DNA of 64,000 nt, from the NCBI GenBank assembly GCA_002269645.1, contig NIVC01003711.1, positions 1-64,000 on the forward strand. Reading direction: 5' to 3'. Shown one piece after another: positions 27,297 to 59,339 of the stretch. Below the pieces are notes generated by a model. The model ran no database searches, was not told where the DNA came from, and was given only the letters and a program-made list of their open reading frames with translations. The number at the start of each line of letters is the position of its first letter. Positions within the stretch are counted from its first letter, which is position 1. The DNA is from Macrostomum lignano. Its lineage: Eukaryota. Both the position numbers and the translations under genes were made by a program.

Positions 27297-38299
<11,003 letters not shown>

Positions 38300-41624: not shown

Positions 41625-44600
41625 TCAGGAGGCGCTGTCTGGCATGAGCAGATCGATCAGGCGCTTCACACAGTCTGGCCTGAGCCGGGCCAAGTCGAAA
41701 TTTGCATAGTCTTTGTCTTTATTAGTCAGCGCCTCGGATTCGGCCAGCACGGAGGCGAGAAGCTGCAGTCGGTCTGGATCGTCAAGCGAAGCGGCCAGCA
41801 GGCACAGCTGGAATCTCTGGTCGTATTCCTCCCGGCTCAGGCCAGACTGCGCCGACCACTGGTACTTGGGGTGGCGGGCCAGGGCAGAGGACTCGGCAGC
41901 CATGGCAGCAGCCGAGATCGGTATGGAGGCAGCCGCCAGGGGCGAGGAATCCGCCGACGAGCTTGGCGGTTCGGCGCCAGCTGCCGGCCGGAAGCCGGTG
42001 CTCTCGACGCTAACCTGCGACATCAGCTCCGGATCGTCTTTGGGCCCAGCGGCCGACTGCAGATAGGGGCTGAGCATTGGCGGCTCAGCCTCCAGCATTG
42101 GCGGGGGCTGAGCTGCCTGAGGCTGGGTGGAAACTGCAGCCTGTGGCGCTTGCAGAGCCGCCACCTTCGCTTCAATTCCTACAGTGTTGTCAACCGGCTG
42201 AAGCTGGTCGGAAACTGTGACAGCAACGGGGGCGGCGGTTGCCGGGGCGGCCAAGGCGGAAGCTTCAGTGACGTCGTCTCCGTCCGGCTCGTCGTGGCGT
42301 CGGCGCTTTTTCTCTTTACCGCCCTCGTGTCGATGCCGGCGCCGTTCGTGCCGCTTCCGCTCGGCGTCGCTGTCGGAGTCGCTGCGGCTTCGCGGCGCGC
42401 GATGATGATGGTGGTGGTGGTGCCGGTGGTGCTTCTCTTTCTTTCGTTTCTCCTTTTTTCGCTTTCGTCGATCGTCCTCGCTTTCGGTTGTTAAGCCGGG
42501 GGCGCCGCTGCCGCTTGGCTGCCAGCTGGCGGCGGATTCCGAGTAATTCGCTGGCGGCTGCTGCGCAACCGACGTTGGCGAAGACTTCATTGAATCGACG
42601 GCAACGTGCGGTGCAACAACGGCCACCATAGCTGGTGGAGCGGCTGTTGGCGGAGCGGACCAGCCCTGCTGCTGCTGCTGTGGAGGGGGGTTCAGTGTGT
42701 AGGAGGCATCGGCCGGTGGCAGAGCAGAGACGGACGCCTCGGCTTTGACGGCAACTGGCGGCGGCGGCGGTACCGCGCCGGGCGAAGATTTAATCGGACT
42801 TTTGGAGATTTTCAGCACCAGCTTCTCGTTTTTCATTTCGTCGGTGCGCAGCTCGGCAACTCGGGGCGGCGCTGGTGGCGGCGGCGGCGGCGCCAACTGC
42901 TGCTGCGACAAGTCGAACTCGGAGACGGCCGGTGATGCCGCCACTGCTGGTTCGGTTTTGACGGCTGCCGGCTGCTGCTTGGGCCGAGCCGAGTAGCCAC
43001 CGGTGCCGCTGGATTCTCGAAGCTTCGCTTTGTTTGGCGAGGCCAGCCGACTGCCAACGATGCTCCTGCCGCTGCCCGCCGCCGCCAACTGCGACTGCTG
43101 CTGTGGAGACTGCGGCAGCGAGCCGGAGTGGACAGCCAATTGGTTGGCCAACTGCTGCTCGTCAGTTGAAGAAGCCGGCGACGCGAAGGTTTGTTCATCG
43201 GCTGGCAGCAGCGCCGCAGCCGCAGCCTTGGACTTGCTCTTGGACCGCACCAGGCCGCTGTTGCCCGACCCTCCAAGCTTGCTGGTCTTGGCTGGCTTCA
43301 CCTCGGCCGGGCCTAGCGGCGAATCCTCGGCCGGATCCACCACAATCTGGTCAGTAATCAATTAGAGGGGCATTGATAGTGAGCCCAGGTAGCACAGGTA
43401 AAATAGGAAAGAAGTGACTCTGGACGACTCTAAAACTACAAGATGCCCCGGTTCAATTGGACAAAAAGTTGTCAGTTGCCTTAGAGCCACTTGAAGCGTT
43501 TTATTAGCTGTGACTCTGACAGTGACAGGACGATATAACGACTCTGGGGCCGTAAAGTCGTAAGACAACGATTCTACAACTCACGTGACGCGATTGTGAC
43601 GCAACAGTCGCTAAAGTCACTAGTGAGTTGTTTGCAATCACTCTGTAGCGACTCTTGTCACAGTATAGTTTTAAATGGGGAGCGCAGTTGTAAATAGTGA
43701 GCACATTAGAGCACTTCAGGCATACACAATGAGCAGGTCAGGTTACTTACCCCACCAGCCCGGATAAGCTTCTCCCTGAACTCCGGGGGTCGCGGATTCG
43801 CGATGGAAAACGATTTGATAGACTTGCAGTTAATATCTTTGTCAAGCATGAGAAACACTTCGTATTCAAAGCCGGCCATTGAATTGTTGAAGTGCAGCTC
43901 GATTTTCATTGGAAACGTGCCAAATGCTTTCTCCTCAATTTCGAATGGAGGCTGGCTAACAACCCGCATGGGGTCGGGAAAGGTTGGGTGCAGCTGGAAC
44001 ACCACTCGTTCAACAAAGGATTCTAACTCTCCATGGCGGCCGCAGACCCAAACTTTCCAGACGTGTGTGGCATTTTGTACACTGGAATTTGGCAGCACCG
44101 GCTGAGTTGGTGCAGATGAGAGTCGCTTAGCCCAGTGGCCAATCTCAATCTCAATCTTTATCTGTGGGTGCCATTTAGTTAGCCATTCTTGATTGCATAC
44201 GCTTTTAAAATAAATCATAAGTAATCAATCAATTTTAAGTATTAATTTTAAGAATCTATTTATAGTGGTATTTATATAAAAGCATTAGCAAGTTAGTAAA
44301 TGTTAACTATTGTTCTAAAATAATCTACAAAATGATACTAATAATATACTGCATTGATAGTGCTATACCTTTTCCCCATTTGCTTGGTTTTCTAAGAAAC
44401 TTTTAATGATTTGAGTCATAAATAATTGATTTAAATGGGTTGTCATGCATTTTGGTATCTCAATTTGCTTTTTAATATCCTAGTTTGTATTTGCCTATGT
44501 CCAACAATAAACTTTATCTAAAAATAGGGTAAGTTGTAAGTTTTTTGACAGATTGAATCAGTGATTTATTTTCTAATTCATTCTTTGAATCTATTAGGAT

Positions 44601-46055: not shown

Positions 46056-46847
46056 GATGATTGATGTTTTTCAAATGTCGAATAGATAGAACCTACGAGG
46101 TATTTATAGCCTATACGAATGTGGCCTTTATAAATATAGCCTTCCTGTTAGTTAGTAGTAGAAAGAATCAAAATAATCCTGGTTCAAAATCAACTGATTA
46201 GTCATATATGATATACTTAACTTACTGCAGTTGCGCTATGCGCGGCTCTGGCGACTCTGCAGGCCTCTGCTACTAAAAATTACGACTTCTTTGAAAAGAA
46301 CTTTTTAAATGGGAGCGTTGCGTGTTTTGTTTTTTTGACATGAAGAAAAATATGGCAATCCAGTTAGGAATTCTATAATTATTAATGTTTATATTCACTT
46401 AGGCCCAGCCTAGTCTTTTTTTAATACATATAAAATACGTGTACTACTAACTTTAGATTTACTCTACTAACTGCTTCATCACAAAAATTTAAATTACACT
46501 GAAACGCTTTTTATTTGTGTACTTTATTTTTTATCGGATTCTTTACTTTTTGTCTTGTTTTATATACTATTGAGCTGACCTATACAGGTACTGTAGTAAA
46601 AAGATGCATCCGGCGTGTCCAGTAAGGTCGCTGGGCCAGTGAGGTCGGTGGGCCTGCCGCTTTTTAGCAGAGGCCCTGAAAATATTGCAAGGGGGCAAGC
46701 GAATTTTTGCCAAAATACAGTCTCACCCAGACCCACTCACTCTCACTTCTAACCTTCCGAGATACGCGCCTCATCTTACAGGTTCTGCCGACTTCTGTAG
46801 AGTAGAGCACTTCCTTTCCGAGCATATTTCATTATTTCCTATAATAT

Positions 46848-47663
46848 TGAGGCAGGCCCGATGTGTTTAATATTCACGTAACCATGATTTTAAATTTCCG
46901 CCAAACTACGCTTAACAACGCATTTTTGTTAGAACGAAATCTTTGTTTTAATGGGTTTGTTTTATTCGGGAAAATTATTTTGTTAAACCGCTATAAAGAA
47001 ATTTGTTTATTCACGACCCGCGCACCCCACCTCCCCCTTTTTGAGACTATAAATACAAGCGATTGCGGGCAATTTCCCCTTTGCCCGCCGTTTCCTCGAT
47101 TCGGTCAAGAAAAGCAAAACGTGTTGTCTTAGTCACTGGAAAGCAAGACAGGAGAGAAAGCTGTAAGAGGCCAGAAAAGCCGTAAGAGGCCAAGAAAGCC
47201 GTGAGAAGCCAGAAAAGCCGTAAGAGGCCAAGAAAAACTGTAAGAAGCCAGAAATAGACGGTTGACGAGTCGGGCAACTCCTTCCCAGGGAGCCCGCAAC
47301 TAAATATAGGGAATTAATAGTAGTAATAATAATAGTAGTGAGATTCATAACTACATGTAGACCAGTGTTTGCCGCTCGACACTGCTACCAGGGCGACTTG
47401 CATAGATTCAAGGAGTCCTTAGATTAGAATTCTAGACTTGATATTTTCTAAGAAGCAGCAATTGACTAAGCAATTTTATGGAGTAATAACTATTCTAAAT
47501 TACAACAACTTGATTCTGTAGTGTGATTATAAACTAAGAAGTGTATAGCCCTGGTATAACTTGGTAACAGCGGTGGGATATTAACAGACAGGAATACCCC
47601 CTAGAACAACTTGGTGGCAGCGGTGGGATATTATTAGAGAGGACAGGAGTTTCCCCTAGAACA
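46848..47663 (+). repeat. 5' LTR
   Basis: TGAGGCAGG...CCTAGAACA; TATA-like TATAAAT at 47048-47054. Confidence 0.95.
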
Positions 47664-47666
47664 ACT

Positions 47667-47678
47667 TGGTGGCAGCGG
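47667..47678 (+). promoter_or_regulatory. Primer-binding site (tRNA-Leu type), 3 nt after the 5' LTR
   Basis: TGGTGGCAGCGG is complementary to the 3' end of tRNA-Leu (..CCGCUGCCACCA). Confidence 0.8.
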
Positions 47679-47712
47679 AAAGGGATTGGAATCCGACTAA
47701 GTCGACCGCTAA

Positions 47713-47812
47713 AGCAAATAACGTGAGAGTACAGCAAATAACGTGAGAGTACAGCAAATAACGTGAGAGTACAGCAAATAACGTGAGAGTACAGCAAATA
47801 ACGTGAGAGTAC
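47713..47812 (+). repeat. Five perfect 20-bp repeats (AGCAAATAACGTGAGAGTAC) in the leader, abutting the gag ATG
   Basis: Read directly; ATG at 47814. Confidence 0.95.
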
Positions 47813-47813
47813 A

Positions 47814-48716
47814 ATGGCAGCACTTAATGACGCTATAGGTTTATTAGCAGAGGAGCTTAGGAACAGGCTAGAACTAGGGCCTATGAGGCATGTAAAGATC
47901 CAAAAGTACACTCCCAGCCAGGATGTACGAATTTGGTTGACTGCATTCGATCAAAGGTGTGATCAGGAAGGAATAGATCAGGAGCACAGGAAAACTGAAC
48001 TTCTAGCTAACCTAGATCTGTCAACTGCATTCGCTGCAGTACAGCGATTAAATTTACCCGAGGATTTGACGTATGAGGAATTTAAGGAGAGATTGGTGGA
48101 AAGATTTGGCCGGATTGGTAGCTCATCTGAGTGCAGAGAAGAGTTCAGAGGTAGGATGCAGGGTAGAAACGAGGCAACCGACGTGTTCGCCGATGCTTTG
48201 ATCGAACTAGCAGCTAGGGCGTTCCCAAATATGAACGCAGAACAGCGTGAAGAGGAAGTAATCGAGCAATTTATCAAGGGAGTAAGAATTTCCTCCGATA
48301 CCCGGGAGAAACTTATTTTTGCTCAGCCCACTAGCCTGCAGGAGGCCAGACGCATGCTTAGGAGAATAGAAGCAGCCTGGCATATGTCGCATAAGAACGG
48401 TGTCAGAGTCGTGAGAGACGAAGATGATGAGAAGAGCAAGCTAGAAAAGCTAATTAAGCTGCAGAAAGCTGAGCTCGAAGAGCAGAAGAAGTTAATTCAG
48501 GAACTGCAAACTGAAAAGCAGCAGCAGCCGCCAGTTACTCAGACTAGGCCGCAATACTATCAGCCAAGAGTTCAGGCGTTCCAGCCACAGCTTCGCCCGC
48601 TGATGCAGCAGCAGATAAGGAGGCAGATTCCGTGGAAGCCAACACAGAATGTAGTGCGACCTGGCTTTAACAACCAGAGTCGATTCCCTGCCCGCAACCC
48701 CAATCAGGGAAACTAG
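47814..48716 (+). CDS. gag: Gag (retrotransposon capsid-type, coiled-coil and Q/P-rich tail, no zinc knuckle)
   Basis: 300 aa; DVRIWLTAFDQRC, FKERLVERFG, EEFRGRMQGRNEATDVFADALIELAARAFP, IEQFIKGV. Confidence 0.88.
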   Translation: MAALNDAIGLLAEELRNRLELGPMRHVKIQKYTPSQDVRIWLTAFDQRCDQEGIDQEHRKTELLANLDLSTAFAAVQRLNLPEDLTYEEFKERLVERFGRIGSSSECREEFRGRMQGRNEATDVFADALIELAARAFPNMNAEQREEEVIEQFIKGVRISSDTREKLIFAQPTSLQEARRMLRRIEAAWHMSHKNGVRVVRDEDDEKSKLEKLIKLQKAELEEQKKLIQELQTEKQQQPPVTQTRPQYYQPRVQAFQPQLRPLMQQQIRRQIPWKPTQNVVRPGFNNQSRFPARNPNQGN

Positions 48717-51700
48717 GATTCGAGGGTCGATATTCGAGGCCACGTCCCTCTAGGAAACCCCAAAGCGAAGCTCAGGCCTCTCATTTCTCCCGCAAACCCG
48801 TTTTCAACCCACTCCCTGGAGGATGGCGACAAGTCCCATTTTCCAGGAATTCAATGCGTAATGCACCAATGCGTAATGCACCAACGCGTAATGCACCCAT
48901 GTATAGAGCACCAATGCGTAATGCACCTGTAAACAGCGCGTCTCCCATCGCGCTATCTCCTAATATGTTTGAGTTATTGGCGTCAGAGCCCAGTGAGTCA
49001 GATGCAAAAGCATCAGCATCCGAGTTGACAAAGTCCCCAGTGACTAAGCCAGCAAATGCAAAGCAGAAGGCGAGAAAATCTCGCAAAGCGAAATATCGAG
49101 AAGCTAAGAAAGCAGCTGAGAAAGCAAAAGTTGATTTGATAAGCGAGAAAAGTAGCGAAGCAATTGTCTTTGGAGACATTGAAGGTCAAGAAATTGACTT
49201 CTTGCTTGACACCGGAGCCGGAAACTGCTTCCTAAGCAAGTCAGTATGGTCCAAGGTGATCAAGACAGAGCAAATCCGAGAAACCAATAAGAGAGTTACC
49301 ACATTTGATGGTTCCTCAGTGCAGCTAGAAGGAGAAGCTAGTGTGTCTGTAACCTTTGGAGATATCCAAATTGATACCAGCTTTTTGCTGTGCAGCTATG
49401 AATGTGATAACATTCTTGGCATGGACTTCTTCCTTTCCCACTGTAAGAGCATTGATTTAGACAATGGCATGCTTGTACTAAAAAGAGGCCTCTGTGTGCC
49501 TATGCAGTACACTCGCCAAGCAGTTAGAATTTGCCGAGTTTATACTCGAGAAAAGGCAGTAGTACCTGCTAATAGTGCATTGAGAGTTCCCATTAGGCTA
49601 GCGAAAGACCATGAGCCCAATCATGGCACTCCTATGACAGTAGAAGTGATCGGAGAAGGCGTGAGAGCCAAGGAATTGACAGTAGAGATGGTTCCGACAT
49701 TGGTCACCATGAGAGACGGCAGTGCCATCGTGGAGATCGTGAATCGACACTCTGTCGACGTGAGACTGCCGAAGTCGACATTGATTGGTCTGGCCAAGCC
49801 CATGAGAGCCAAGGACCTCGTCTACTGGTCAGCATCGCCTTCCGCCGCCGAATCAGCTTCGCCGACAATTGCCGAAGATGCCGCACAACCCGCCGGACGT
49901 GTCAATCAAGCTCAGGCAACTGAAGATGCTTGGGTGAGCGAAATTAGTATTGGTGCCGATTTATCTGAAAGTCAGCGAAAAGCAGTAATTGATCTCGTGA
50001 GAGAGAATAGAGAAGCATTTTCCCAGCATGATTTAGACATGGGATTGACTCATCTAGTCACTCATGAAATTTCCCTGAAGGACGAGACCCCTGTTAGAAT
50101 CCCTACCCGCCGCATCCCCCCTCATCTCCAAAAGCAAGTCGACGCCCAGCTAGACGACATGCTAGCTAAGAATCTCATCCGCCCCTGCTATTCTACCTAT
50201 TCTACCCCATTAGTCATTGTGCCAAAGAAGGATGGCACCATCCGAATAGTGAGTGATTTCCGAGTGCTCAACTCTAGAGTTAACTATTTTCCCTATCCCC
50301 TCCCCAATATTCAAGAAACTTTTTCTAATCTTACTGGCAGTAGGTACTTTAGTAGTTTAGATCTTAACTCAGGTTATTGGCAAGTGCCTATAAAGGAAGA
50401 GCATAAGTTCATGACCGCGTTCTCTACTTTGACGCGAGGACAGTTTGAGTACCAGGTTATGGCGCAAGGGTTATCCAACGCGCCCGGTACATTTCAAAGA
50501 CTGATGAACTTAGTGCTAGCCGGAATCCAGCATAAGTTTGCAATGTCGTATATTGACGATATAGTTACTTACTCGAAGCAATTTGAGGAGCATTTATCCC
50601 ATCTAAGAGAGGTGTTTCAGAGATTGATCACCGCAGGTTTAAAGTTGAGAGCGAAAAAGTGCAACTTATTTCACTCTGAACTCAAGTATCTAGGCCATGT
50701 GATAGGTAGAGATGGCATTCGCACAGACGAAGCCAAGATTGAAGCCATTAGAACCTGGCCAAAGCCAAAGGAAGTAAAGGAATTGAGAAGCTTTTTAGGA
50801 TTGTGCAATTACTACAGCAGATTTGTCAAAAATTATGCTGAAGTAGCGCATCCTCTTTTCCAACTGACTCGTAAGGGAGTTCAAAACTTCCAAGCAAAAT
50901 GGACAGCAAAGCATGATGAAGCGTTTGAGCTATTGAAAACCCGTATGATGAGTACTGACGTGTTAGCATACCCTGAGTTCATAGACAATGAGAAGGTGAA
51001 GATGGTTCTCGATGTAGACGCCAGTGATGGACGCATAGGTGCCTGTTTAGGACAAATCCAATCAGACGGTGTCGAGAGACCAATCGCCTACTTTAGTCGC
51101 GCTATGAAGGAGTCAGAAAAACGCTATCCCATAACTCGCAAGGAGTTGCTAGCTCTAGTAGATGCCATGAGGCATTTCCGCTTCTATCTAATAGGAAAGA
51201 AATTTCTAGCTAGGACCGACCATAAGGCTATACTTTGGTTATTAAGGCAGACAGAAGCCCAGGGCATTTTAGGCAGATGGATTGAGCGCCTCAATGAATT
51301 TCAATTCGAAATCGAGCATAGGAGTGGCGCGAAACATTCAAATGCCGATAGCTTGTCCCGAAGGCCAGCCGAGGCTGCCCAGCCAGATTGTAAAGCCAAT
51401 GAGAAGGCGGAAGCCGAGAAGAAGAATCAAGAGATGAGCGAAATCCCCAGCAAAGGCGTAAGAGCCGAAGTGAACCAAAAGATAAGCGCAGATAAAGAGA
51501 AGTATATCCCCAGCGAACGCGTGTGTGCACAGCAGAACCAGAATGGGAAGGCTAAGGACAGCATAAGCAATCTGACCCAGCCCCCCACTGAGCAGAGAGA
51601 GGGAGAGACCAACCCCCCCCCCCCCGAGTCACAGAGGAGCAAAATAGTCTCTGGTGAGAAGAGTGTAAGGATTGACAGTGTGAAAACACAGAGCTCCTGC

Positions 51701-51910
51701 GTTATGCAATCGAGCAGAGTCACCCCACAATCTGAGCACAGTGAGGAGTATGGCACGCTGAAGGTTGGAGCATTATTAGTTGACTTCCTACCTAACCCCC
51801 TGCGGAGAGAGCAGATTATTAATGCCCAGCGCGAAGACCCCAATATTAGTACTTTGCTGAGTTGCAAGCTTGAAGAAAAAGAACCCCCCCGCCGAGCAAA
51901 AGAGCATTAG
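48713..51910 (+). CDS. pol: Pol: aspartic protease, reverse transcriptase, RNase H (entered by -1 frameshift)
   Basis: FLLDTGAG, ILGMDF, DFRVLN, LDLNSGYWQ, GLSNAPGTFQR, SYIDD, YLGHVI, DVDASD..IGACLGQ, YFSR, KELLAL, TDHKA. The frame is open back to 48713. Confidence 0.95.
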   Translation, partial: LGFEGRYSRPRPSRKPQSEAQASHFSRKPVFNPLPGGWRQVPFSRNSMRNAPMRNAPTRNAPMYRAPMRNAPVNSASPIALSPNMFELLASEPSESDAKASASELTKSPVTKPANAKQKARKSRKAKYREAKKAAEKAKVDLISEKSSEAIVFGDIEGQEIDFLLDTGAGNCFLSKSVWSKVIKTEQIRETNKRVTTFDGSSVQLEGEASVSVTFGDIQIDTSFLLCSYECDNILGMDFFLSHCKSIDLDNGMLVLKRGLCVPMQYTRQAVRICRVYTREKAVVPANSALRVPIRLAKDHEPNHGTPMTVEVIGEGVRAKELTVEMVPTLVTMRDGSAIVEIVNRHSVDVRLPKSTLIGLAKPMRAKDLVYWSASPSAAESASPTIAEDAAQPAGRVNQAQATEDAWVSEISIGADLSESQRKAVIDLVRENREAFSQHDLDMGLTHLVTHEISLKDETPVRIPTRRIPPHLQKQVDAQLDDMLAKNLIRPCYSTYSTPLVIVPKKDGTIRIVSDFRVLNSRVNYFPYPLPNIQETFSNLTGSRYFSSLDLNSGYWQVPIKEEHKFMTAFSTLTRGQFEYQVMAQGLSNAPGTFQRLMNLVLAGIQHKFAMSYIDDIVTYSKQFEEHLSHLREVFQRLITAGLKLRAKKCNLFHSELKYLGHVIGRDGIRTDEAKIEAIRTWPKPKEVKELRSFLGLCNYYSRFVKNYAEVAHPLFQLTRKGVQNFQAKWTAKHDEAFELLKTRMMSTDVLAYPEFIDNEKVKMVLDVDASDGRIGACLGQIQSDGVERPIAYFSRAMKESEKRYPITRKELLALVDAMRHFRFYLIGKKFLARTDHKAILWLLRQTEAQGILGRWIERLNEFQFEIEHRSGAKHSNADSLSRRPAEAAQPDCKANEKAEAEKKNQEMSEIPSKGVRAEVNQKISADKEKYIPSERVCAQQNQNGKAKDSISNLTQPPTEQREGETNPPPPESQRSKIVSGEKSVRIDSVKTQSSCVMQSSRVTPQSEHSEEYGTLKVGALLVDFLPNPLRREQIINAQREDPNISTLLSCKLEEKEPPRRAKEH

Positions 51911-53516
51911 CTCAGAATTTAAGCAGTTGGGCAAATCCTACGAGAAAATGAAAATCGAAAGCGATATGCTTGTTATTGAAGAAGAAGGAGTAAGCAAAAT
52001 TGTGTTGCCAGTGTCGCTGGACAAATTAGTGCTGGCTGATCTACACGATAGCCCACTAGCAGGACACTTGGGTCGTGACAAGACAGTGCAAAGAGTTAGG
52101 GAGAGATTTTGGAGACCCGGCTTAGTGACAGCCATTGAGAAGTACATATCTGAGTGTATTCCGTGTTTGGAAAGCAAAAGAGGATGCCCTGTTCAGGCTC
52201 CAGTGCAGTCATTCCCAGTCAACGAGGCATTTCATCGCCTACATATCGATATCATAGGCCCCATTTCGAAAGAAAGCAAGAGAGGCCATCGTTATGTACT
52301 GACTGTAATTGATAGTACTACCCGCTACCCATTCGCGTTCCCGATCCGTAATCAGAAGTCTGATACCGTGATCAAGATCTTACAGGAGCGAATTTTCAGT
52401 GAATATGGTCAATGCCATTGGATACATACTGACAATGGGAAAACCTTCACAAGCAGACAGTTTAAAGCGTTTTGCGAAGCATACAATGTCAAGCACACCT
52501 GTACCACCCCGTACCATGCCCAAAGTAATGGCTTGGTAGAGAGGTTTAACAAGCAAGTGAAATCCATCATTACCTGTTTAATTAAGAAGGACCATAGCAA
52601 TTGGGATTTAATGATCCCAGCAGCGCTTGTTGCAGTGCGCACTAGTGTGAATCAAACCACAGGCTATTCACCCCATTTCCTGTTATTCGGAAGGGAGCCA
52701 GTTTTGCCACTAGACAGTCAAATTCGCCAGCCAAATCAGTACTCAGGCTATCCAGCCTATGTCGCAGATCATGCCGAAAGGCTAGAAATTGCCAGAAAAA
52801 TCGTGAGAGATAAGCTCGAGAAAGTTGCTGATAATAGAAAGAATATTGCTGAAACAGCCAAGCAGCCTAAGGAAGTACCAGTAGGGAGTTTAGCGTTATT
52901 AAATAACCCGCAGTTAGACAATGAGGAGTCTAACAAATTTCACAGAAAGAAGAGAGCCGCCTATAGAGTGATCGAACAGATCTCAGATGTAGTGTTTAGA
53001 GTGCAGAAAGAAGAGGATGGTGAGCTTGTAGGGAATAAATTATTAGTGCATAGGGACAATTTAACACTAGTTCCTAATTCGACCGCAGAATTACCAATTA
53101 AGGGAAGCCAGCAGGAGAGGCACCGGAAGAAAAATCAGTCAAGGAGGGAACCTAAAGCTAAGGGAAGCCACCCGCCGAGGAAGCATAAGGAGATAGTGAT
53201 TAGTGAAGAGTCTGAGTATGACACTGAATCTGAGGATGAGCGAGTGCAATGGCAATGCCAAATGAGAGAGTCCGAAACGGAACCAGCAACTGAGAGCGAA
53301 GATGAGAGCCAAGAGTCAGAGAGTGCGGTAGAAGAAGGAGGAATAATGAGCAATGCAGAAGACGCCAGAGAGAACAATGAGATTGAGCATGAGCACGAGG
53401 AAGCTAATTCAGAGAGGAGATACAATACACGCAGGCAGGTCAGGCCCCCCAAGTGCTATTGTTGCTTGAAGCGGCTGGCCACTGTGCTGTCTTTGTTGAA
53501 CAATCTCAGTTTCTGA
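51870..53516 (+). CDS. int: Integrase (frameshifted from pol at a C7 run)
   Basis: HHCC (LHDSPLAGHLG..CIPC), DDE (HIDIIG, HTDNG, GLVERFN), degenerate GPY/F module, acidic tail; no chromodomain seen. Confidence 0.93.
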   Translation: MKKKNPPAEQKSISSEFKQLGKSYEKMKIESDMLVIEEEGVSKIVLPVSLDKLVLADLHDSPLAGHLGRDKTVQRVRERFWRPGLVTAIEKYISECIPCLESKRGCPVQAPVQSFPVNEAFHRLHIDIIGPISKESKRGHRYVLTVIDSTTRYPFAFPIRNQKSDTVIKILQERIFSEYGQCHWIHTDNGKTFTSRQFKAFCEAYNVKHTCTTPYHAQSNGLVERFNKQVKSIITCLIKKDHSNWDLMIPAALVAVRTSVNQTTGYSPHFLLFGREPVLPLDSQIRQPNQYSGYPAYVADHAERLEIARKIVRDKLEKVADNRKNIAETAKQPKEVPVGSLALLNNPQLDNEESNKFHRKKRAAYRVIEQISDVVFRVQKEEDGELVGNKLLVHRDNLTLVPNSTAELPIKGSQQERHRKKNQSRREPKAKGSHPPRKHKEIVISEESEYDTESEDERVQWQCQMRESETEPATESEDESQESESAVEEGGIMSNAEDARENNEIEHEHEEANSERRYNTRRQVRPPKCYCCLKRLATVLSLLNNLSF

Positions 53517-53551
53517 GTGGAGGAGAAGGAAGGAAGGAGAAGGAGGAGTGA

Positions 53552-53772
53552 GAGCCAATGAGAGGAGGCGTAGAAGTGAAGGGATTTCGAGGCCGTGGAT
53601 AGGAGGAGAGAGGCGAAGAGACCGACAGCCAATAAGGAAGAATCATCAGCCAATGAGAGAAGACCTGCCATTTAAACAAATAATTGTTTGTTTGAATAAG
53701 CTTGAAACATGATGCCCCCCAAAGTGGAATGTTTGCAAACCTATATAAGCGAGATCCCTGACGCAATCAGTT
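53552..53772 (+). promoter_or_regulatory. Candidate internal Pol II promoter for ORF3
   Basis: AGCCAAT(G/A) with CCAAT at 53555, 53629 and 53650; TATATAA at 53742; TCAGTT Inr-like at 53767-53772. Confidence 0.6.
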
Positions 53773-53842
53773 CCTCATCCTCAACAGAGCAATAAGGCAG
53801 CAATTAAGTAGCAATAAAGAAGCAGTCAAGAGCAAATCCGTT

Positions 53843-55285
53843 ATGAATAAAGAAAACGAAGAGTTAAATATTTTAGCAGACGGTAGTGAATTTGACGATC
53901 TATTAAAAGAGCTTGAAGGGCCTTGGCCCATGCAGCAAGATGAGCAAACTGAGCAACCAGAGCCAGAGCGTTCAGCGCAGCAAAACGAGCAAGAACAGCT
54001 AGCTGAGGCTCCGTCGCAGCCGCCTGCTACGCAGCAGCCTGCTCCGACGCTGGCACCGCCGTCAGAGCCATTACGGGAGCGTCAGTCAGCTGACCTGCCC
54101 GGGCCCTCGCAGCCACCGGAGCCCTCCACCAAGCCAAAGCGACCTGCTGCAGAAACGGATCAGGGTACACAAGCGAAGAGGCCGGCCCCGTCAAGGCTGC
54201 CAGTGTCCCAGGATCCGGCAGCAAGACAGGAGCTCGTTAGAGTGAAGTCGGTGCAGTCCGTGGTGGTAAAACCGACGGTTATGCAGAGGCACCCGGCTGG
54301 CGCGCGGCCCACACTGATGTTAGCTGCCCCGCCTCAGCAGCAGCGGCCGGCTCAGCGGTCGCAGCCTCGACGTGTGGCGTCGCGAGCAGAAGTCCGACAG
54401 CAGCTGCCAGTGCACCGCAGGCTGGCTCCGCGGCCGCCGCCGCAGCAGCGCCGGCAGTCGCCGCCGCAGCGCCGCCACCAGTCTCCGCCACGGCACCGCC
54501 ACCAGTCGCCGCCGCAGCGCCGCCACCAGTCTCCGCCGCAGCACCATCAGCAGCCACCGCCGTCTCAGCCTCATCAGCAGCCACCGCCGTCTCAGCACCA
54601 TCACCAGTCTCCGCCGCAGCACCATCAGCAGCCACCGCCGTCTCAGCCTCATCAGCAGCCACCGCCGTCTCAGCACCATCAGCAGCCACCGCCGTCTCAG
54701 CCTCATCAGCAGCCACCGCCGTCTCAGCACCATCAGCAGCCACCGCCGTCTCAGCACCATCAGCAGCCACCGCCGTCTCAGCATCATCAGCAGCCACCGC
54801 CGTCTCAGCATCATCAGCAGCCGCCACCGCAGACTGCAGTGCCACCACAGGCGTCAACCTGCCGTGCAGCTGCAAGTTATTTGTTCGCCCCCGGCAACCA
54901 AGACATCCAAAGGCTTGCTGCGATGGGCGCCGACTTCAGCGCCATCATGGACGGTTTGTCGCCAGAACAGCAGGCAAGAATGAAGCGACTGATTGCTGCC
55001 CTGAAGGAGTATCTAATGCGAATCGGCCACTTGCGGTTGGACCGGCCGCTGCCACAGCGGGCCCAGGTCCGGCCAGCCTGCATTGTGCTTCGCCAAGAAT
55101 TCACGCCTGAGCAAGCTGTCGCGGCTTGGCGCCGCGCCGTGAATTACGTACTTCATGACCTGAATGCGGCTGGCCAGCCGTACTTTCGCACGCTGCTTAT
55201 CATAGAGATTAAGTGGCTCGCCGAGCAAGTCGGATGGCCTCTACGCGACCTTTTGCCGGACGAATTTAATCTGAATGATAATTAG
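53843..55285 (+). CDS. ORF3: accessory protein of unknown function (acidic N-terminus, P/Q/H repeats, helical C-terminal domain)
   Basis: Intact 480-aa ATG-initiated ORF between integrase and the PPT; no signal peptide or transmembrane segment. Confidence 0.8.
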   Translation: MNKENEELNILADGSEFDDLLKELEGPWPMQQDEQTEQPEPERSAQQNEQEQLAEAPSQPPATQQPAPTLAPPSEPLRERQSADLPGPSQPPEPSTKPKRPAAETDQGTQAKRPAPSRLPVSQDPAARQELVRVKSVQSVVVKPTVMQRHPAGARPTLMLAAPPQQQRPAQRSQPRRVASRAEVRQQLPVHRRLAPRPPPQQRRQSPPQRRHQSPPRHRHQSPPQRRHQSPPQHHQQPPPSQPHQQPPPSQHHHQSPPQHHQQPPPSQPHQQPPPSQHHQQPPPSQPHQQPPPSQHHQQPPPSQHHQQPPPSQHHQQPPPSQHHQQPPPQTAVPPQASTCRAAASYLFAPGNQDIQRLAAMGADFSAIMDGLSPEQQARMKRLIAALKEYLMRIGHLRLDRPLPQRAQVRPACIVLRQEFTPEQAVAAWRRAVNYVLHDLNAAGQPYFRTLLIIEIKWLAEQVGWPLRDLLPDEFNLNDN

Positions 55286-55638
55286 GTGACTATAATTGAA
55301 CTGTCATGTACTGTTATTTTTTCGCATTGCATGCATACCTATTTAGCCTTCACTAATTTGCATGGATACTTATTTAGCCAAAATTCTTGTGTGCTCAACT
55401 TTGTGCAACTTTATATTTAGCCAAACATCTTTTTGTACGCTCAACTTCGTGCCATTTTAATAATAGCCAACCTTGCTCAATTCTTCCACTAACTATATTA
55501 CTGATATTACCATGTTGTGTGCTGTTTTAATGTTTTAGTGTCAGCCAATTTTATCTAGTGCCTACGTTTTGTGATTAAAAGCCCCTTTTGCACTTTAACT
55601 ACACATTTATTCACTCACTAGTTTATTCATAAATATGT

Positions 55639-55648
55639 AGAAGGGAAG
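55639..55648 (+). promoter_or_regulatory. Polypurine tract
   Basis: AGAAGGGAAG, 5 nt before the 3' LTR. Confidence 0.65.
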
Positions 55649-55653
55649 CCAGT

Positions 55654-56469
55654 TGAGGCAGGCCCGATGTGTTTAATATTCACGTAACCATGATTTTAAA
55701 TTTCAGCCAAACTACGCTTAACAACGCATTTTTGTTAGAACGAACTCTTTGTTTTAATGGGTTTGTTTTATTCGGGAAAATTATTTTGTTAAACCGCTAT
55801 AAAGAAATTTGTTTATTCACGACCCGCGCACCCCACCTCCCCCTTTTTGAGACTATAAATACAAGCGATTGCGGGCAATTTCCCCTTTGCCCGCCGTTTC
55901 CTCGATTCGGTCAAGAAAAGCAAAACGTGTTGTCTTAGTCACTGGAAAGCAAGACAGGAGAGAAAGCTGTAAGAGGCCAGAAAAGCCGTAAGAGGCCAAG
56001 AAAGCCGTGAGAAGCCAGAAAAGCCGTAAGAGGCCAAGAAAAACTGTAAGAAGCCAGAAATAGACGGTTGACGAGTCGGGCAACTCCTTCCCAGGGAGCC
56101 CGCAACTAAATATAGGGAATTAATAGTAGTAATAATAATAGTAGTGAGATTCATAACTACATGTAGACCAGTGTTTGCCGCTCGACACTGCTACCAGGGC
56201 GACTTGCATAGATTCAAGGAGTCCTTAGATTAGAATTCTAGACTTGATATTTTCTAAGAAGCAGCAATTGACTAAGCAATTTTATGGAGTAATAACTATT
56301 CTAAATTACAACAACTTGATTCTGTAGTGTGATTATAAACTAGGAAGTGTATAGCCCTGGTATAACTTGGTAACAGCGGTGGGATATTAACAGACAGGAA
56401 TACCCCCTAGAACAACTTGGTGGCAGCGGTGGGATATTATTAGAAAGGACAGGAGTTTCCCCTAGAACA
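55654..56469 (+). repeat. 3' LTR
   Basis: Copy of 46848-47663 with differences corresponding to 46899, 46939, 47537 and 47639. Confidence 0.95.
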
Positions 56470-57554
56470 ATATTATCTTGTCAATTTGGGTTACTAGGCC
56501 TGCCTATCATGTCATGAGTTACTTACTTGACTTAGCTGCAGGGGGCTACGTGCGTCCGGAAACAGCGAGGAGGCGTTGCCGCCCATATCGCTAACCCCTG
56601 GCGACCATGTCATGAGTTAGACATGACATGCATGACATGAAAATTTGTATTTAACTTCTTTAAAAATGTTAAATAGCAGAAATATGATATAGTATTCAAT
56701 ATAAAAAATATTTTGCACTTCTTCAAATTTGTTTCTTGAATTTAAAAAGCTTGAATTTGAATATTAAAAAACAAATGTAAACTAGGTGTAGCTACCCAAA
56801 TTTGAATTGAGTTTGGTTTAATAGATAAAAGTTCACTTTGCACAAAAATTATTTTGTATTATACTTGGAAGCCCTATTTTATATTAGACCTAATTCTAAA
56901 GGTTATTGTTGTAAATCAACATAGTTTATATAGAGATTCTAATAGGATCATGTAAAGTACTAAAAAACTTGATAAGTTGATAGTTAGTATATAATTCTAT
57001 GTGTAACAATGCCTTTAGACCTATTATACTTTGAGTGAAAAAAATTAAAAGTTTTTATTGTATCTCTAATAGTGCTAATATGATAGATATATTAGGGCCC
57101 AATAGTGATGGTTATCACTGTCTATTTTAAAAGGCCTAAAATTGAAATAAAACACATTTTTGCTAAAAGGATCTATGTCTATTTGACTTTTAGCAATAGA
57201 CAATGAAATTTCCCACAATGGGTTTGTTTTTATACTAAAATTAGACTATTATGATTGAGCTTAAACAATATTTATATATAGATATTAGATAGGATCAATC
57301 AACTTCTTAGGCATTGTACCCAAGATTCTAGGACTTGACTTTAGGATAATCAAGAAGTAATCGGGTATCTGGTTTAATTTTGAATTAATTATAGATGTTG
57401 GATAGCAACAAAGTTTTCAGGATTGAGATCCTTGTCGTAATCCTAAAATATCTTTTAATAACTTTTTCAACCTACTTACAGACAGTAGTAATAAGCAGTA
57501 CTTGATTTACTAAATGTCACCCCATCCTATTGCACATTCAATCAGCTGTTCCAG

Positions 57555-59339
57555 TCAGTGCGCAGCGTGGCCTTTTTGCGCCATGCTGCAGTCCAGCAGC
57601 TGAGCACTGCTCCAGCTCCATCAGCAATGGCTTCCCATTCAATGCGCTCAGTGAACTCATACGAGTATGGCGGCTTAGAGAAGCTGCAGCTCACCGACAC
57701 CATGAAGGTGCCAGTGCTCCGCCAGCCGGACGATATTCTGGTGCGGGTGCACTGCAGCACTGTGCAGCCGATAGACATCGCACTGCTTTCCGGCTACGGC
57801 TCTGTTCTGCTGCCCCTCGCTGCTCGAGCTGCCGCCTGCGGCGCCGAGCCTGACGCTGTTCCGCCAGCGCTGCCACTAATTCTCGGCCGCGACTTCTGCG
57901 GCGAGGTGGTCGCGGCCGGCCCGGACTGTCCGCCAGAGCTGCGCCAGCCCGGCCGGCTGGTTTGGGGCGCCAGGGCGCCGTTCGAGTCTGGCTGCCACGC
58001 CGAATTCGCCCTGGCCAGCGCCCGGCATGTCCGGCCCGTGCCGGACGGCGTGGACCCGGCCGCTGCCGCCTGCGTCCCGTATCCGGGCCTCACCGCGCTG
58101 GCCGCCATGCTGGAGGCTGGCCTGCCCACGCCTGCCAGCAGCTTCAACTGGCCGCTGAGGTGTCGGAGTTCTCGGCCGGACCCTGCTGTGCTGGTCCTGG
58201 GCGCCAGCGGCGGCGTTGGCTTGCTGCTGCTTCAGCTCATTCGATGCCTGCTGCCTGCCTGCCGCCTTGTTGTCACCTGCCCGGCTAGGTGAGCTTTTAC
58301 TGCCTCCCTTAATCCCTTGGTCTTTTAGTGTCTCCTTAATCTCCTGGCCTTTTACTGCCTTCCTTTAATCCTCTGGTCTTTTAGTGGCTCCCTTAATCTC
58401 TTGGTCTTTTAGTGGCTCCCTTAATCTCTTGGTCTTTTAGTGGCTCCCTTAATTCCCTGGTCTTTTAGTGGCTCCCTAATCCCCTGGTCTTTTAGTGGCT
58501 CCCTTAATCTCTTGGTCTTTTAGTGGCTCCCTTAATCTCTTGGTCTTTTAGTGGCTCCCTTAATCCCCTGGTCTTTTAGTGGCTCCCTTAATCTCTTGGT
58601 CTTTTAGTGGCTCCCTTAATCCCCTGGTCTTTTAGTGGCTCCCTTAATCTTTTGATTCTTCAGTGGACTGCCTTATCCGCTGATTCCTTAGTATAGTCTC
58701 TCTAATCTCCTGATGCTTCAACGACAGCCAGTTAATCCTGTTCAATTAATCAAAGTAAATAGAATCTCCAACCCAGTTGTGCTACTGTCAGTAGTGCAGC
58801 TGAGCTGCTCAGCAATAGTATTAAAATCAAAATAAACCCGAACTTTCAGACACGTCGCCGACCTGCCAGCTGCCGTGAATGGCTGCCAGCTGGACTCGGT
58901 GCTGGCATCCGGCGGCCATGACTCCGCCGCGACCCTGCAACAGCTGACCGCAGCTCCGGCTACTTTCGATGCCATCATCGACCTGACTAGGGATGCCGCC
59001 AGTCGGCGCCGCCTGCTGCCGACCCTGCGGCCGGGGGGCCGTCTGGCCACCGTGAGCAGCCCGCTGCTACGCCTGTTCGACCAGCGCGGCGTCGCTGGCG
59101 GCGCCCCGGTCGCGGCGCGCGCCTTCGCCTCGGACCGGGCCGCCGGAATCCGCTGGGCCTTCTTTGCCCAGTCCGGCGCCAATCTGGACTATTTGGCGCG
59201 GCTGTTGGCGCTGGGCCGGCTGGCGCCAAGGATTGACCGGCGATTTTCTATGAGCGGCGAATTTCGCACCGCCTTCGAGCTGGCAGCCGGAGGCGACGGT
59301 CGCGGCATGGGCAGAGTGGTGCTGGACGTTGCCAGCTGA
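57555..59339 (+). CDS. RTN4IP1: RTN4IP1-like mitochondrial NADPH:quinone oxidoreductase (MDR family)
   Basis: Exons ~57555/57627-58288 and 58850-59339 (phase 2). YGGLEKLQL, DILVRVHCSTVQPID..LLSGYG, LPLILGRDFCGEVV, GCHAEF, AAACVPYPGLTA, VLVLGASGGVG, IRWAFF, GRVVL. The 5' end is uncertain. Confidence 0.85.
58295..58670. repeat. 28-bp minisatellite (GGTCTTTTAGTGGCTCCCTTAATCTCTT) in RTN4IP1 intron
   Basis: About 13 copies starting just after the donor. Confidence 0.9.

Follow-up and report, generated by a model that had tools for sequence, protein, structure and literature searches.

The window analysed in this study, a stretch of 64,000 nt of the Macrostomum lignano genome (contig C3711), contains a young Ty3/Gypsy retrotransposon on the forward strand, which was delimited by its LTR pair and target site duplication (TSD) and spans 46848-56469 as a whole. 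Comparison of the LTR boundaries placed the two copies of the TSD, ATAT, at 46844..46847 and 56470..56473. The 5' LTR (46848..47663, TG...CA) and the 3' LTR (55654..56469) are both 816 bp long and differ by 4 substitutions and no gaps. Between them, all on the forward strand, lie a leader tandem repeat of 20 nt × 5.1 copies (47713..47813), a gag-position ORF of 300 aa with no Pfam family above the cut-off (47814..48716), a pol frame for protease, reverse transcriptase (RT) and RNase H (48671..51910) with Ty3 Gag-Pol as best solved relative (E 3e-80), an integrase with H2C2 and rve (51861..53516) in a frame different from that of the RT part in this copy, an extra 507-aa frame rich in proline, glutamine and histidine with no Pfam hits (53762..55285), and a polypurine tract (PPT) with a linker ending in AGT (55639..55653). 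The Ty3/Gypsy traits present are the paired TG...CA LTRs, the short TSD, a host-tRNA primer binding site (PBS), the PPT and the domain order protease-RT-RNase H-integrase. In the comparison with solved structures, the RT was nearest to Ty3-type RT at the E value given above, with retroviral RTs much weaker.

The extra frame sits between the integrase and the 3' LTR and holds 24- and 27-nt tandem repeats. A 19-nt repeat within the LTR (47155-47254) differs in copy number between family members, as does the 20-nt leader repeat. The PPT linker AGT (55651-55653, PPT to LTR) mirrors the ACT at the opposite end (47664-47666, LTR to PBS), and similar linkers of 3-4 nt were found across the array-bearing clade described below; the linear DNA may accordingly end with 3 extra bases, not the usual 2. 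Elsewhere in the window, a long 18-nt tandem array with copies 98-99% identical was seen at about 34850-36700, and the host genes near the element are a YEATS-domain frame (43706-44224, reverse strand) and a zinc-binding dehydrogenase-like gene (57495-59339, forward strand).

The LTR ends in three units, each composed of a tRNA-Leu PBS-like head, a spacer and an LTR end, which are followed by the working PBS. Unit Z (47511..47558) has a decayed head and a decayed end, with a predicted tRNA duplex of only about -8 kcal/mol. Unit A (47562..47608) has a head matching at 16/18 positions and an LTR-end motif followed by the 3-nt linker ACT, while unit E (47612..47663) has a perfect 18-nt tRNA-Leu head and carries the integrated LTR end. 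The working PBS, assigned from its position after the LTR, consists of a 12-nt match, an A-rich bulge and GGGAT (47667..47686), and the leader stretch behind it (47687..47697) is predicted from duplex energies to pair with the tRNA T arm. The first-pass annotation had reported three stacked units with heads at 47562, 47612 and 47667. These heads are real and the first two are copied in the 3' LTR at 56368 and 56418; the stack itself was confirmed, but the decayed fourth unit at 47511 had been missed, and its head also recurs in the 3' LTR (56317), whose units are as in the 5' LTR. The middle head had been equated with the 3' end of tRNA-Leu, and it does match the host tRNA-Leu 3' end plus CCA at 18/18 positions: all 12 hits of its pattern in the host genome were tRNA-Leu(AAG/TAG) genes (12/12), which provides a host tRNA complementary to the perfect inner site. 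A degenerate pattern covering four F1-family head types, used for heads matching other tRNAs, found only the same perfect form (12/12), and none of the 31 sites returned by a looser tRNA pattern was a tRNA gene matching the bulged working forms.

The stack is not an assembly artefact, since a contig from run X15 covers 47527-47635, differs there in 1 letter and confirms the junctions, and a contig from run X2, a separate study, carries a different, longer array between flanks matching those of the window. A search of 46700-47900 against Rfam gave 0 matches. Further upstream, at about 47364-47392, CAGTGT...CACTG forms a stem whose loop is CCGCTCG and which is followed by GCTAC; it is kept in 43 of the 76 array-clade LTRs examined, and the motif after this stem could pair with a PBS head.

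The LTR family of the window was collected by a DNA search with the LTR end (at least 47 matches; best 40 of 171 candidates scored) and by a search with the LTR start, which gave 32 exact sites. Of the 43 family LTR rows located through an upstream anchor, 42 had at least one unit, and in the remaining row a nested insertion splits the LTR. The unit order of the window, Z-A-E, was one of many; elsewhere the orders Z-A-B, Z-B-C-A, A-D-C, Z-B-C-D, D-A-B, Z-D-B-A, Z-B-C, A-D, D-B-E and A-D-B were found. By hand count over the 43 rows, an exact 4-nt TSD bounds 17 independent insertions, whose last units belong to 6 types; A-type units are TSD-bounded ends at C1396 and C685/C684. Alternative integration-competent ends, as had been proposed, are thus in use, and not only the equivalent of 47663. 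A second copy of the window's own array, whole or cut at 47608, was not found among the 43 rows.

For the wider survey, a tRNA-guided scan of 173 segments (856 kb) gave 176 arrays. A TSD was called for 61 of the 135 arrays without a leader, the other 74 including provirus 3' LTRs and LTRs without a located start. Two TSD calls were judged spurious, and ends more than 60 nt from the last head and units longer than 70 nt were dropped. Merging of duplicated loci reduced 97 entries to 79 (47 solo LTRs, 17 paired and 15 with the 5' side only), among which one duplicate pair was left unmerged and one "pair" (C390) later proved false. Most loci were found via the junction pattern, so the counts refer to array-bearing copies and are lower bounds.

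The array-bearing clade comprised 79 insertions with 206 units, 122 distinct spacers and 40 spacer types at 75% identity. The unit length was 49-59 nt in 205/206 units, with 1 to 7 units per LTR, and 57 distinct unit orders were found among the 76 insertions with units. A total of 25 unit types were seen as the TSD-bounded last unit, 17 of which were also internal, and spacer types were common to LTRs with different starts. Neighbouring units were of the same type in only 6/129 cases and of different types in 123/129, and 9 pairs of unit types were found in both orders. Tandem copies of one unit occurred at C1449, C1600, C112 and C1115. The tandem junctions are not due to chance, because their pattern gave 235 genome hits, some of them unrelated satellites, against 35 for the reversed control. 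None of the 122 metagenome stretches listed with this pattern had both heads within 5 edits of tRNA-Leu, and no relative of the RT was found in the viral contigs searched.

The RT-RNase H region of the array-bearing elements is 84-96% identical to that of the window, and 20 RT rows formed one group with an SH-aLRT support of 100 in a quick, midpoint-rooted tree built from single alignment hits and without reference elements. The stack layout marks one whole RT clade in the M. lignano genome, for which the Ty3/Gypsy clades Mag, CsRN1, Gmr1/Osvaldo and Mdg3/Micropia are listed in the available part of a host retrotransposon study (PMC12801592). Seven related elements at 59-62% RT identity were examined. 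The six with a full LTR pair were without stacked units and had one internal GGTGGCAGC motif followed by CTACC, while only the LTR start of the seventh was covered. In these relatives (L375-L384, C2559) the GGTGGCAGC...CTACC stretch lies about 100-130 nt before the LTR end and could form a short hairpin; it also occurs upstream of the stack in several array-bearing LTRs. The working PBSs of the lineages at about 60% RT identity are perfect or carry 1-2-nt insertions in the 5' half.

Near-identical sisters with their own TSDs showed that LTR length changes in one-unit steps, as had been anticipated. Between the LTRs of C1849 and C3152 there is 1 substitution besides one 51-nt end unit, and this same unit, with 0-1 substitutions, separates C833 and C867 from C29. 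Simple duplication of the end-plus-PBS cassette, which had been put forward as the driver of lengthening, accounts for little, given the low number of like neighbours and the type pairs found in both orders; these two results point to exchange between different elements.

The symmetry of the two LTRs was assessed in 21 TSD-bounded proviruses (16 + 4 + C759, with C390 left out). The array was identical in both LTRs in 20/21, which would be expected of changes arising in the minus-strand strong-stop step. None of the 21 was longer on the 5' side, giving a rule-of-three ceiling of about 14% per insertion, and the only asymmetric case is longer on the 3' side; a longer 5' LTR being the simplest mark of priming at an internal site, the other half of the earlier proposal, no such mark was seen. 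In this asymmetric provirus, C759, the 5' LTR matches the first 707 nt of the 758-nt 3' LTR exactly and stops there, and the TSD, GGTT, is at the long end. Because the 5' LTR is one unit short and the TSD bounds the long end, it fits an early plus-strand transfer from an inner head to the PBS, although a deletion between 14-nt direct repeats after integration could have the same look. C299 and C61 have symmetric arrays but one-mismatch TSDs and were left out of the count. C1382 and the second C991 element were treated as chimeras rather than proviruses, being without a TSD and having unlike LTRs, and C390 was dropped as a provirus pair since its upstream flank is shared and it is without a PPT. 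At the C390 locus (154800-170000), 10,070 bp are duplicated, and a single insertion takes the form of a 5' LTR with its PBS in the one copy and of a solo LTR in the second.

Sites followed by a leader were taken as working sites (n = 32) and compared with the 206 inner heads. An unbroken 5' match to the tRNA of at least 9 nt was present in 32/32 working sites and in 19/206 inner heads. Working sites carried a lesion at positions 10-14 in 25/32 cases, nearly always A-rich and in nine forms, and 18/32 start with 12 perfect bases, which were themselves demanded by the search pattern used. Inner heads were damaged mostly at positions 5, 6, 9 and 11 and in the G run at 14-16. Inner heads cannot, however, be called unprimable, because the lineages at about 60% RT identity use working sites with an unbroken 5' match of only 5 nt.

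The integrated end had been read as lying before the weakest site. The end at 47663 with its TSD was upheld, but the 12-nt site is not the weakest: with the T-arm extension, the last site has a predicted duplex energy of -46.6 kcal/mol against -40.5 kcal/mol for the perfect inner site, both for naked RNA. The predicted gain from the extension was -11.2 kcal/mol compared with -7.6 kcal/mol for shuffled sequences, and 21/21 distinct working sites beat their shuffles, these energies being naked-RNA predictions and the 21 sites falling into only 5 leader types. No such gain was predicted in the 128 inner units tested. The 12-nt site would thus bind the tRNA best once the T arm is counted, and this prediction resolves the puzzle of the integrated end preceding it; the modelled energies point to primer choice being set by T-arm pairing rather than by the 18-nt match. 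A hairpin role for the heads was not supported. Sequestering of the head by the end of its own unit gave -7.48 kcal/mol in native units and -7.45 kcal/mol in controls (102 units, p 0.45), a hairpin between the head and the preceding end across the junction gave -6.06 and -6.38 kcal/mol (97 junctions, p 0.14), and no covarying hairpin was found in the units. Intron-like units were also rejected, as there is no AG acceptor: 205/206 bodies end in ACA, followed by the linker and TG before GT.

The working site bears traces of copying from the tRNA. The LTRs of C833 and C867 are 1 substitution and 1 gap apart, with one PBS perfect and the other bulged, so that the 50:50 inheritance of the tRNA copy is visible at the working site. 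Perfect and damaged states were both present in 4/5 leader types, and perfect working sites made up 7/32, below one half (p 0.002, for copies that are not independent). For the mouse ERVs ETn, MusD and IAP, the available portion of one report describes 50:50 PBS inheritance and proposes escape from 3' tRNA fragments (PMC7472051), and the states of the working sites fit both. Among the inner heads, the edit distance to the tRNA was zero in 10, one in 1, two in 11 and three to six in 184. For 4 of the 10 perfect inner heads, a body 0-1 edits away bears a head with 2-3 edits; the body of unit E, for example, is 1 edit from that of C1382, which has the same A-E order and a head that departs from the tRNA by 3 edits, two of which fall in the 3' half. 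The odds that perfect inner heads arose by overwriting from a tRNA copy, judged from these comparisons, are about even or somewhat better. A real alternative that requires no tRNA template is a crossover joining an inner head, where the damage lies in the 5' half, to a working PBS, where it lies in the 3' half. Only 1/206 inner heads equalled a lesioned working PBS. Perfect heads were found in the last position in 8/76 cases and elsewhere in 2/130, a weak enrichment because three share one body and two come from single-unit LTRs and are not independent; a further perfect inner unit, at C670, was dropped by the length filter. The six seed-pairing bases were kept in 32/98 distinct imperfect inner heads and in 1/18 distinct imperfect working sites (p 0.02). 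The lesions, in heads as in working sites, are probably the result of selection against sequences fully complementary to 3' tRNA fragments.

Starting from the observed anatomy, the mixed orders, the alternative TSD-bounded ends, the one-unit differences between sisters and the one 5'-short provirus, we consider it probable that in one Ty3/Gypsy clade the LTR 3' end is a variable, reshuffled stack of units of about 50 nt, many types of which serve as integrated ends, and that the stack is turned over by RT strand switches at the shared junction. Priming would normally take place at the last site, since only there does the leader pair with the tRNA T arm, and the upstream units, which the model assumes to lie in U5, would thereby be copied into both LTRs. 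Gain and re-ordering of units would come from template switches during minus-strand strong-stop synthesis, made between RNAs that different elements have contributed to one particle, occasional slips in this synthesis would give tandem unit copies, and loss of units would follow from an early plus-strand transfer that leaves from an inner head and lands on the true PBS. The accessible part of one study documents premature second-strand transfer for HIV-1 (PMC12657518). In some inner heads the perfect tRNA sequence would be restored by overwriting, with the plus-strand tRNA copy as the probable source. A provirus longer on the 5' side would be the expected intermediate of overwriting by internal priming or by plus-strand mis-transfer, and its absence among the 21 counts against this step. 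As every head follows a valid end, errors would yield viable copies and the stack could persist without a dedicated function. The turnover pattern is well supported and the enzymatic route plausible.

Other explanations share parts of this evidence. Routine priming of tRNA-Leu at inner heads, shortening the LTR and resetting the head, would account for perfect inner heads on otherwise unchanged bodies, including unit E beside its C1382 counterpart, and related lineages do prime from sites as mismatched as many inner heads. Sisters shorter by one unit exist too, and a short symmetric product would result if the plus strand then moved to the true PBS. It is nevertheless unlikely as a routine, given that no provirus was 5'-longer, that few inner heads keep the unbroken 5' match seen in every working site, that inner units are predicted to have no T-arm extension and that the mixed orders are left unexplained. 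Slippage of an ordinary tandem repeat (VNTR) after integration is consistent with the tandem copies at the four loci named above and with the 55-nt period called by Tandem Repeats Finder in the window. The dissimilar neighbours, the spacer types common to LTRs with different starts, the agreement of both LTRs in nearly all proviruses and a unit phase tied to TSD-bounded ends make it highly improbable, and as a main route it is largely refuted by the mixed orders.

Maintenance of the stack by selection, as extra tRNA docking sites for primer loading, RNA dimer formation or packaging, would explain why spacers have split into 40 types and heads have nevertheless remained only a few edits from the tRNA, why practically all family LTRs keep at least one unit and why a single internal GGTGGCAGC motif persists in the LTRs of related lineages. 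Drosophila Gypsy offers a precedent in a second tRNA site that bridges the RNA ends, but according to the accessible part of the source that site binds another part of the tRNA and is dispensable for cDNA synthesis (PMC1635307). Heads can also remain similar to the tRNA with no function involved, through homology at the junctions and overwriting from time to time, and with a unit number varying from 1 to 7 and no covarying hairpin, such selection seems quite improbable. The suggestion that inner heads are decoys soaking up 3' tRNA fragments was not supported. Working sites do lose the seed-pairing bases more often than inner heads, and the many solo LTRs could supply decoy RNA; yet the seed match is broken in two thirds of the inner heads as well, and one would expect further sites on the RNA of the element itself to increase silencing, as deduced from the portion of the mouse work available (PMC7472051). 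On these sequence comparisons, a decoy role appears very doubtful. A more far-reaching reading is less likely, though not remote, namely that an evolved cassette system trades a pool of interchangeable LTR-end and primer-site modules among co-packaged elements of one clade, turns normally lethal early transfers into viable copies, allows inner sites to be primed and rewritten from the tRNA, and re-assorts the primer region under tRNA-fragment silencing. If it were true, earlier events of co-packaging and priming could be read from the order of the units.

In the standard picture, one PBS lies outside the LTR and the U5 end is fixed. This active clade, in contrast, keeps up to seven PBS/end junctions inside both LTRs and reshuffles them. 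The layout resembles the U5-PBS junction of Ty3/Gypsy elements (Metaviridae) in its TG...CA LTRs, 4-nt TSD, PBS after the 5' LTR, PPT before the 3' LTR and domain order, and differs in that the end-plus-PBS junction is repeated 1 to 7 times in both LTRs, shuffled, with many types serving as ends. TRIM/Cassandra tandem arrays also consist of head-to-tail units with a PBS, but such a unit is non-coding, holds a whole LTR, PBS and PPT and is placed between LTRs, whereas the present units of 49-59 nt lie inside the LTR and fall outside the definition of a TRIM array. LTR enhancer repeats vary in copy number inside the LTR, in U3, and do not form ends, and in a simple VNTR, unlike here, neighbouring copies would be alike.

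Among the systems below, each compared through the part of the source available, the mouse ETn/MusD/IAP elements likewise have mostly mismatched working sites with perfect ones scattered among sisters (7/32 here), but with one PBS per element, whereas here inner units are affected too and the damage is at other positions (PMC7472051). Aberrant second-strand transfer in HIV-1 gives a shortened 5' LTR as at C759; the products there are defective proviruses, while a cut at the junction here leaves a valid end and a PBS (PMC12657518). The two tRNA sites of Drosophila Gypsy and the multipartite PBS of Ty1/Ty3 share more than one tRNA-complementary site and pairing beyond the acceptor stem, but those sites are fixed and bind different parts of the tRNA, while the stack repeats one and the same 3' stretch of 18 nt, every copy having its LTR end (PMC1635307). 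Pairing with other tRNA arms, the multipartite-PBS trait, is predicted for the leader after the working PBS and not for inner heads. A mosquito Copia cluster has two PBSs in one cluster without the stack layout, as far as the accessible text goes (PMC3212995). In the host retrotransposon study, "PBS" and "primer binding" are absent from the main text, and "PBS" and the motifs from five text supplements, while its other files may describe these families (PMC12801592). The earlier remark that this layout is not known to have been described agrees with the open literature searched, most subscription journals and repeat-database entries lying outside it. Overall, the layout is real and clade-wide, apparently undescribed in that literature, and a variant of the LTR-PBS junction; the present analysis adds a pool of units spanning the clade, their shuffling and direct evidence that the LTR has alternative ends.

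The clade provides a natural series for three problems that single elements can hardly address: the choice that RT makes between competing primer sites, the frequency and the places of stray strand transfers in the germ line of an animal, and whether perfect primer sites are selected against by tRNA fragments in animals other than mammals. Annotation of such families can go wrong over the LTR ends, the calling of PBSs and dating by LTR pairs. Finally, C723, C1180, C112, C303, C990, C1449 and C2229 are short elements (LTR spacing of 4-5.5 kb) with identical LTRs and long arrays, and are probably non-autonomous partners of the clade.
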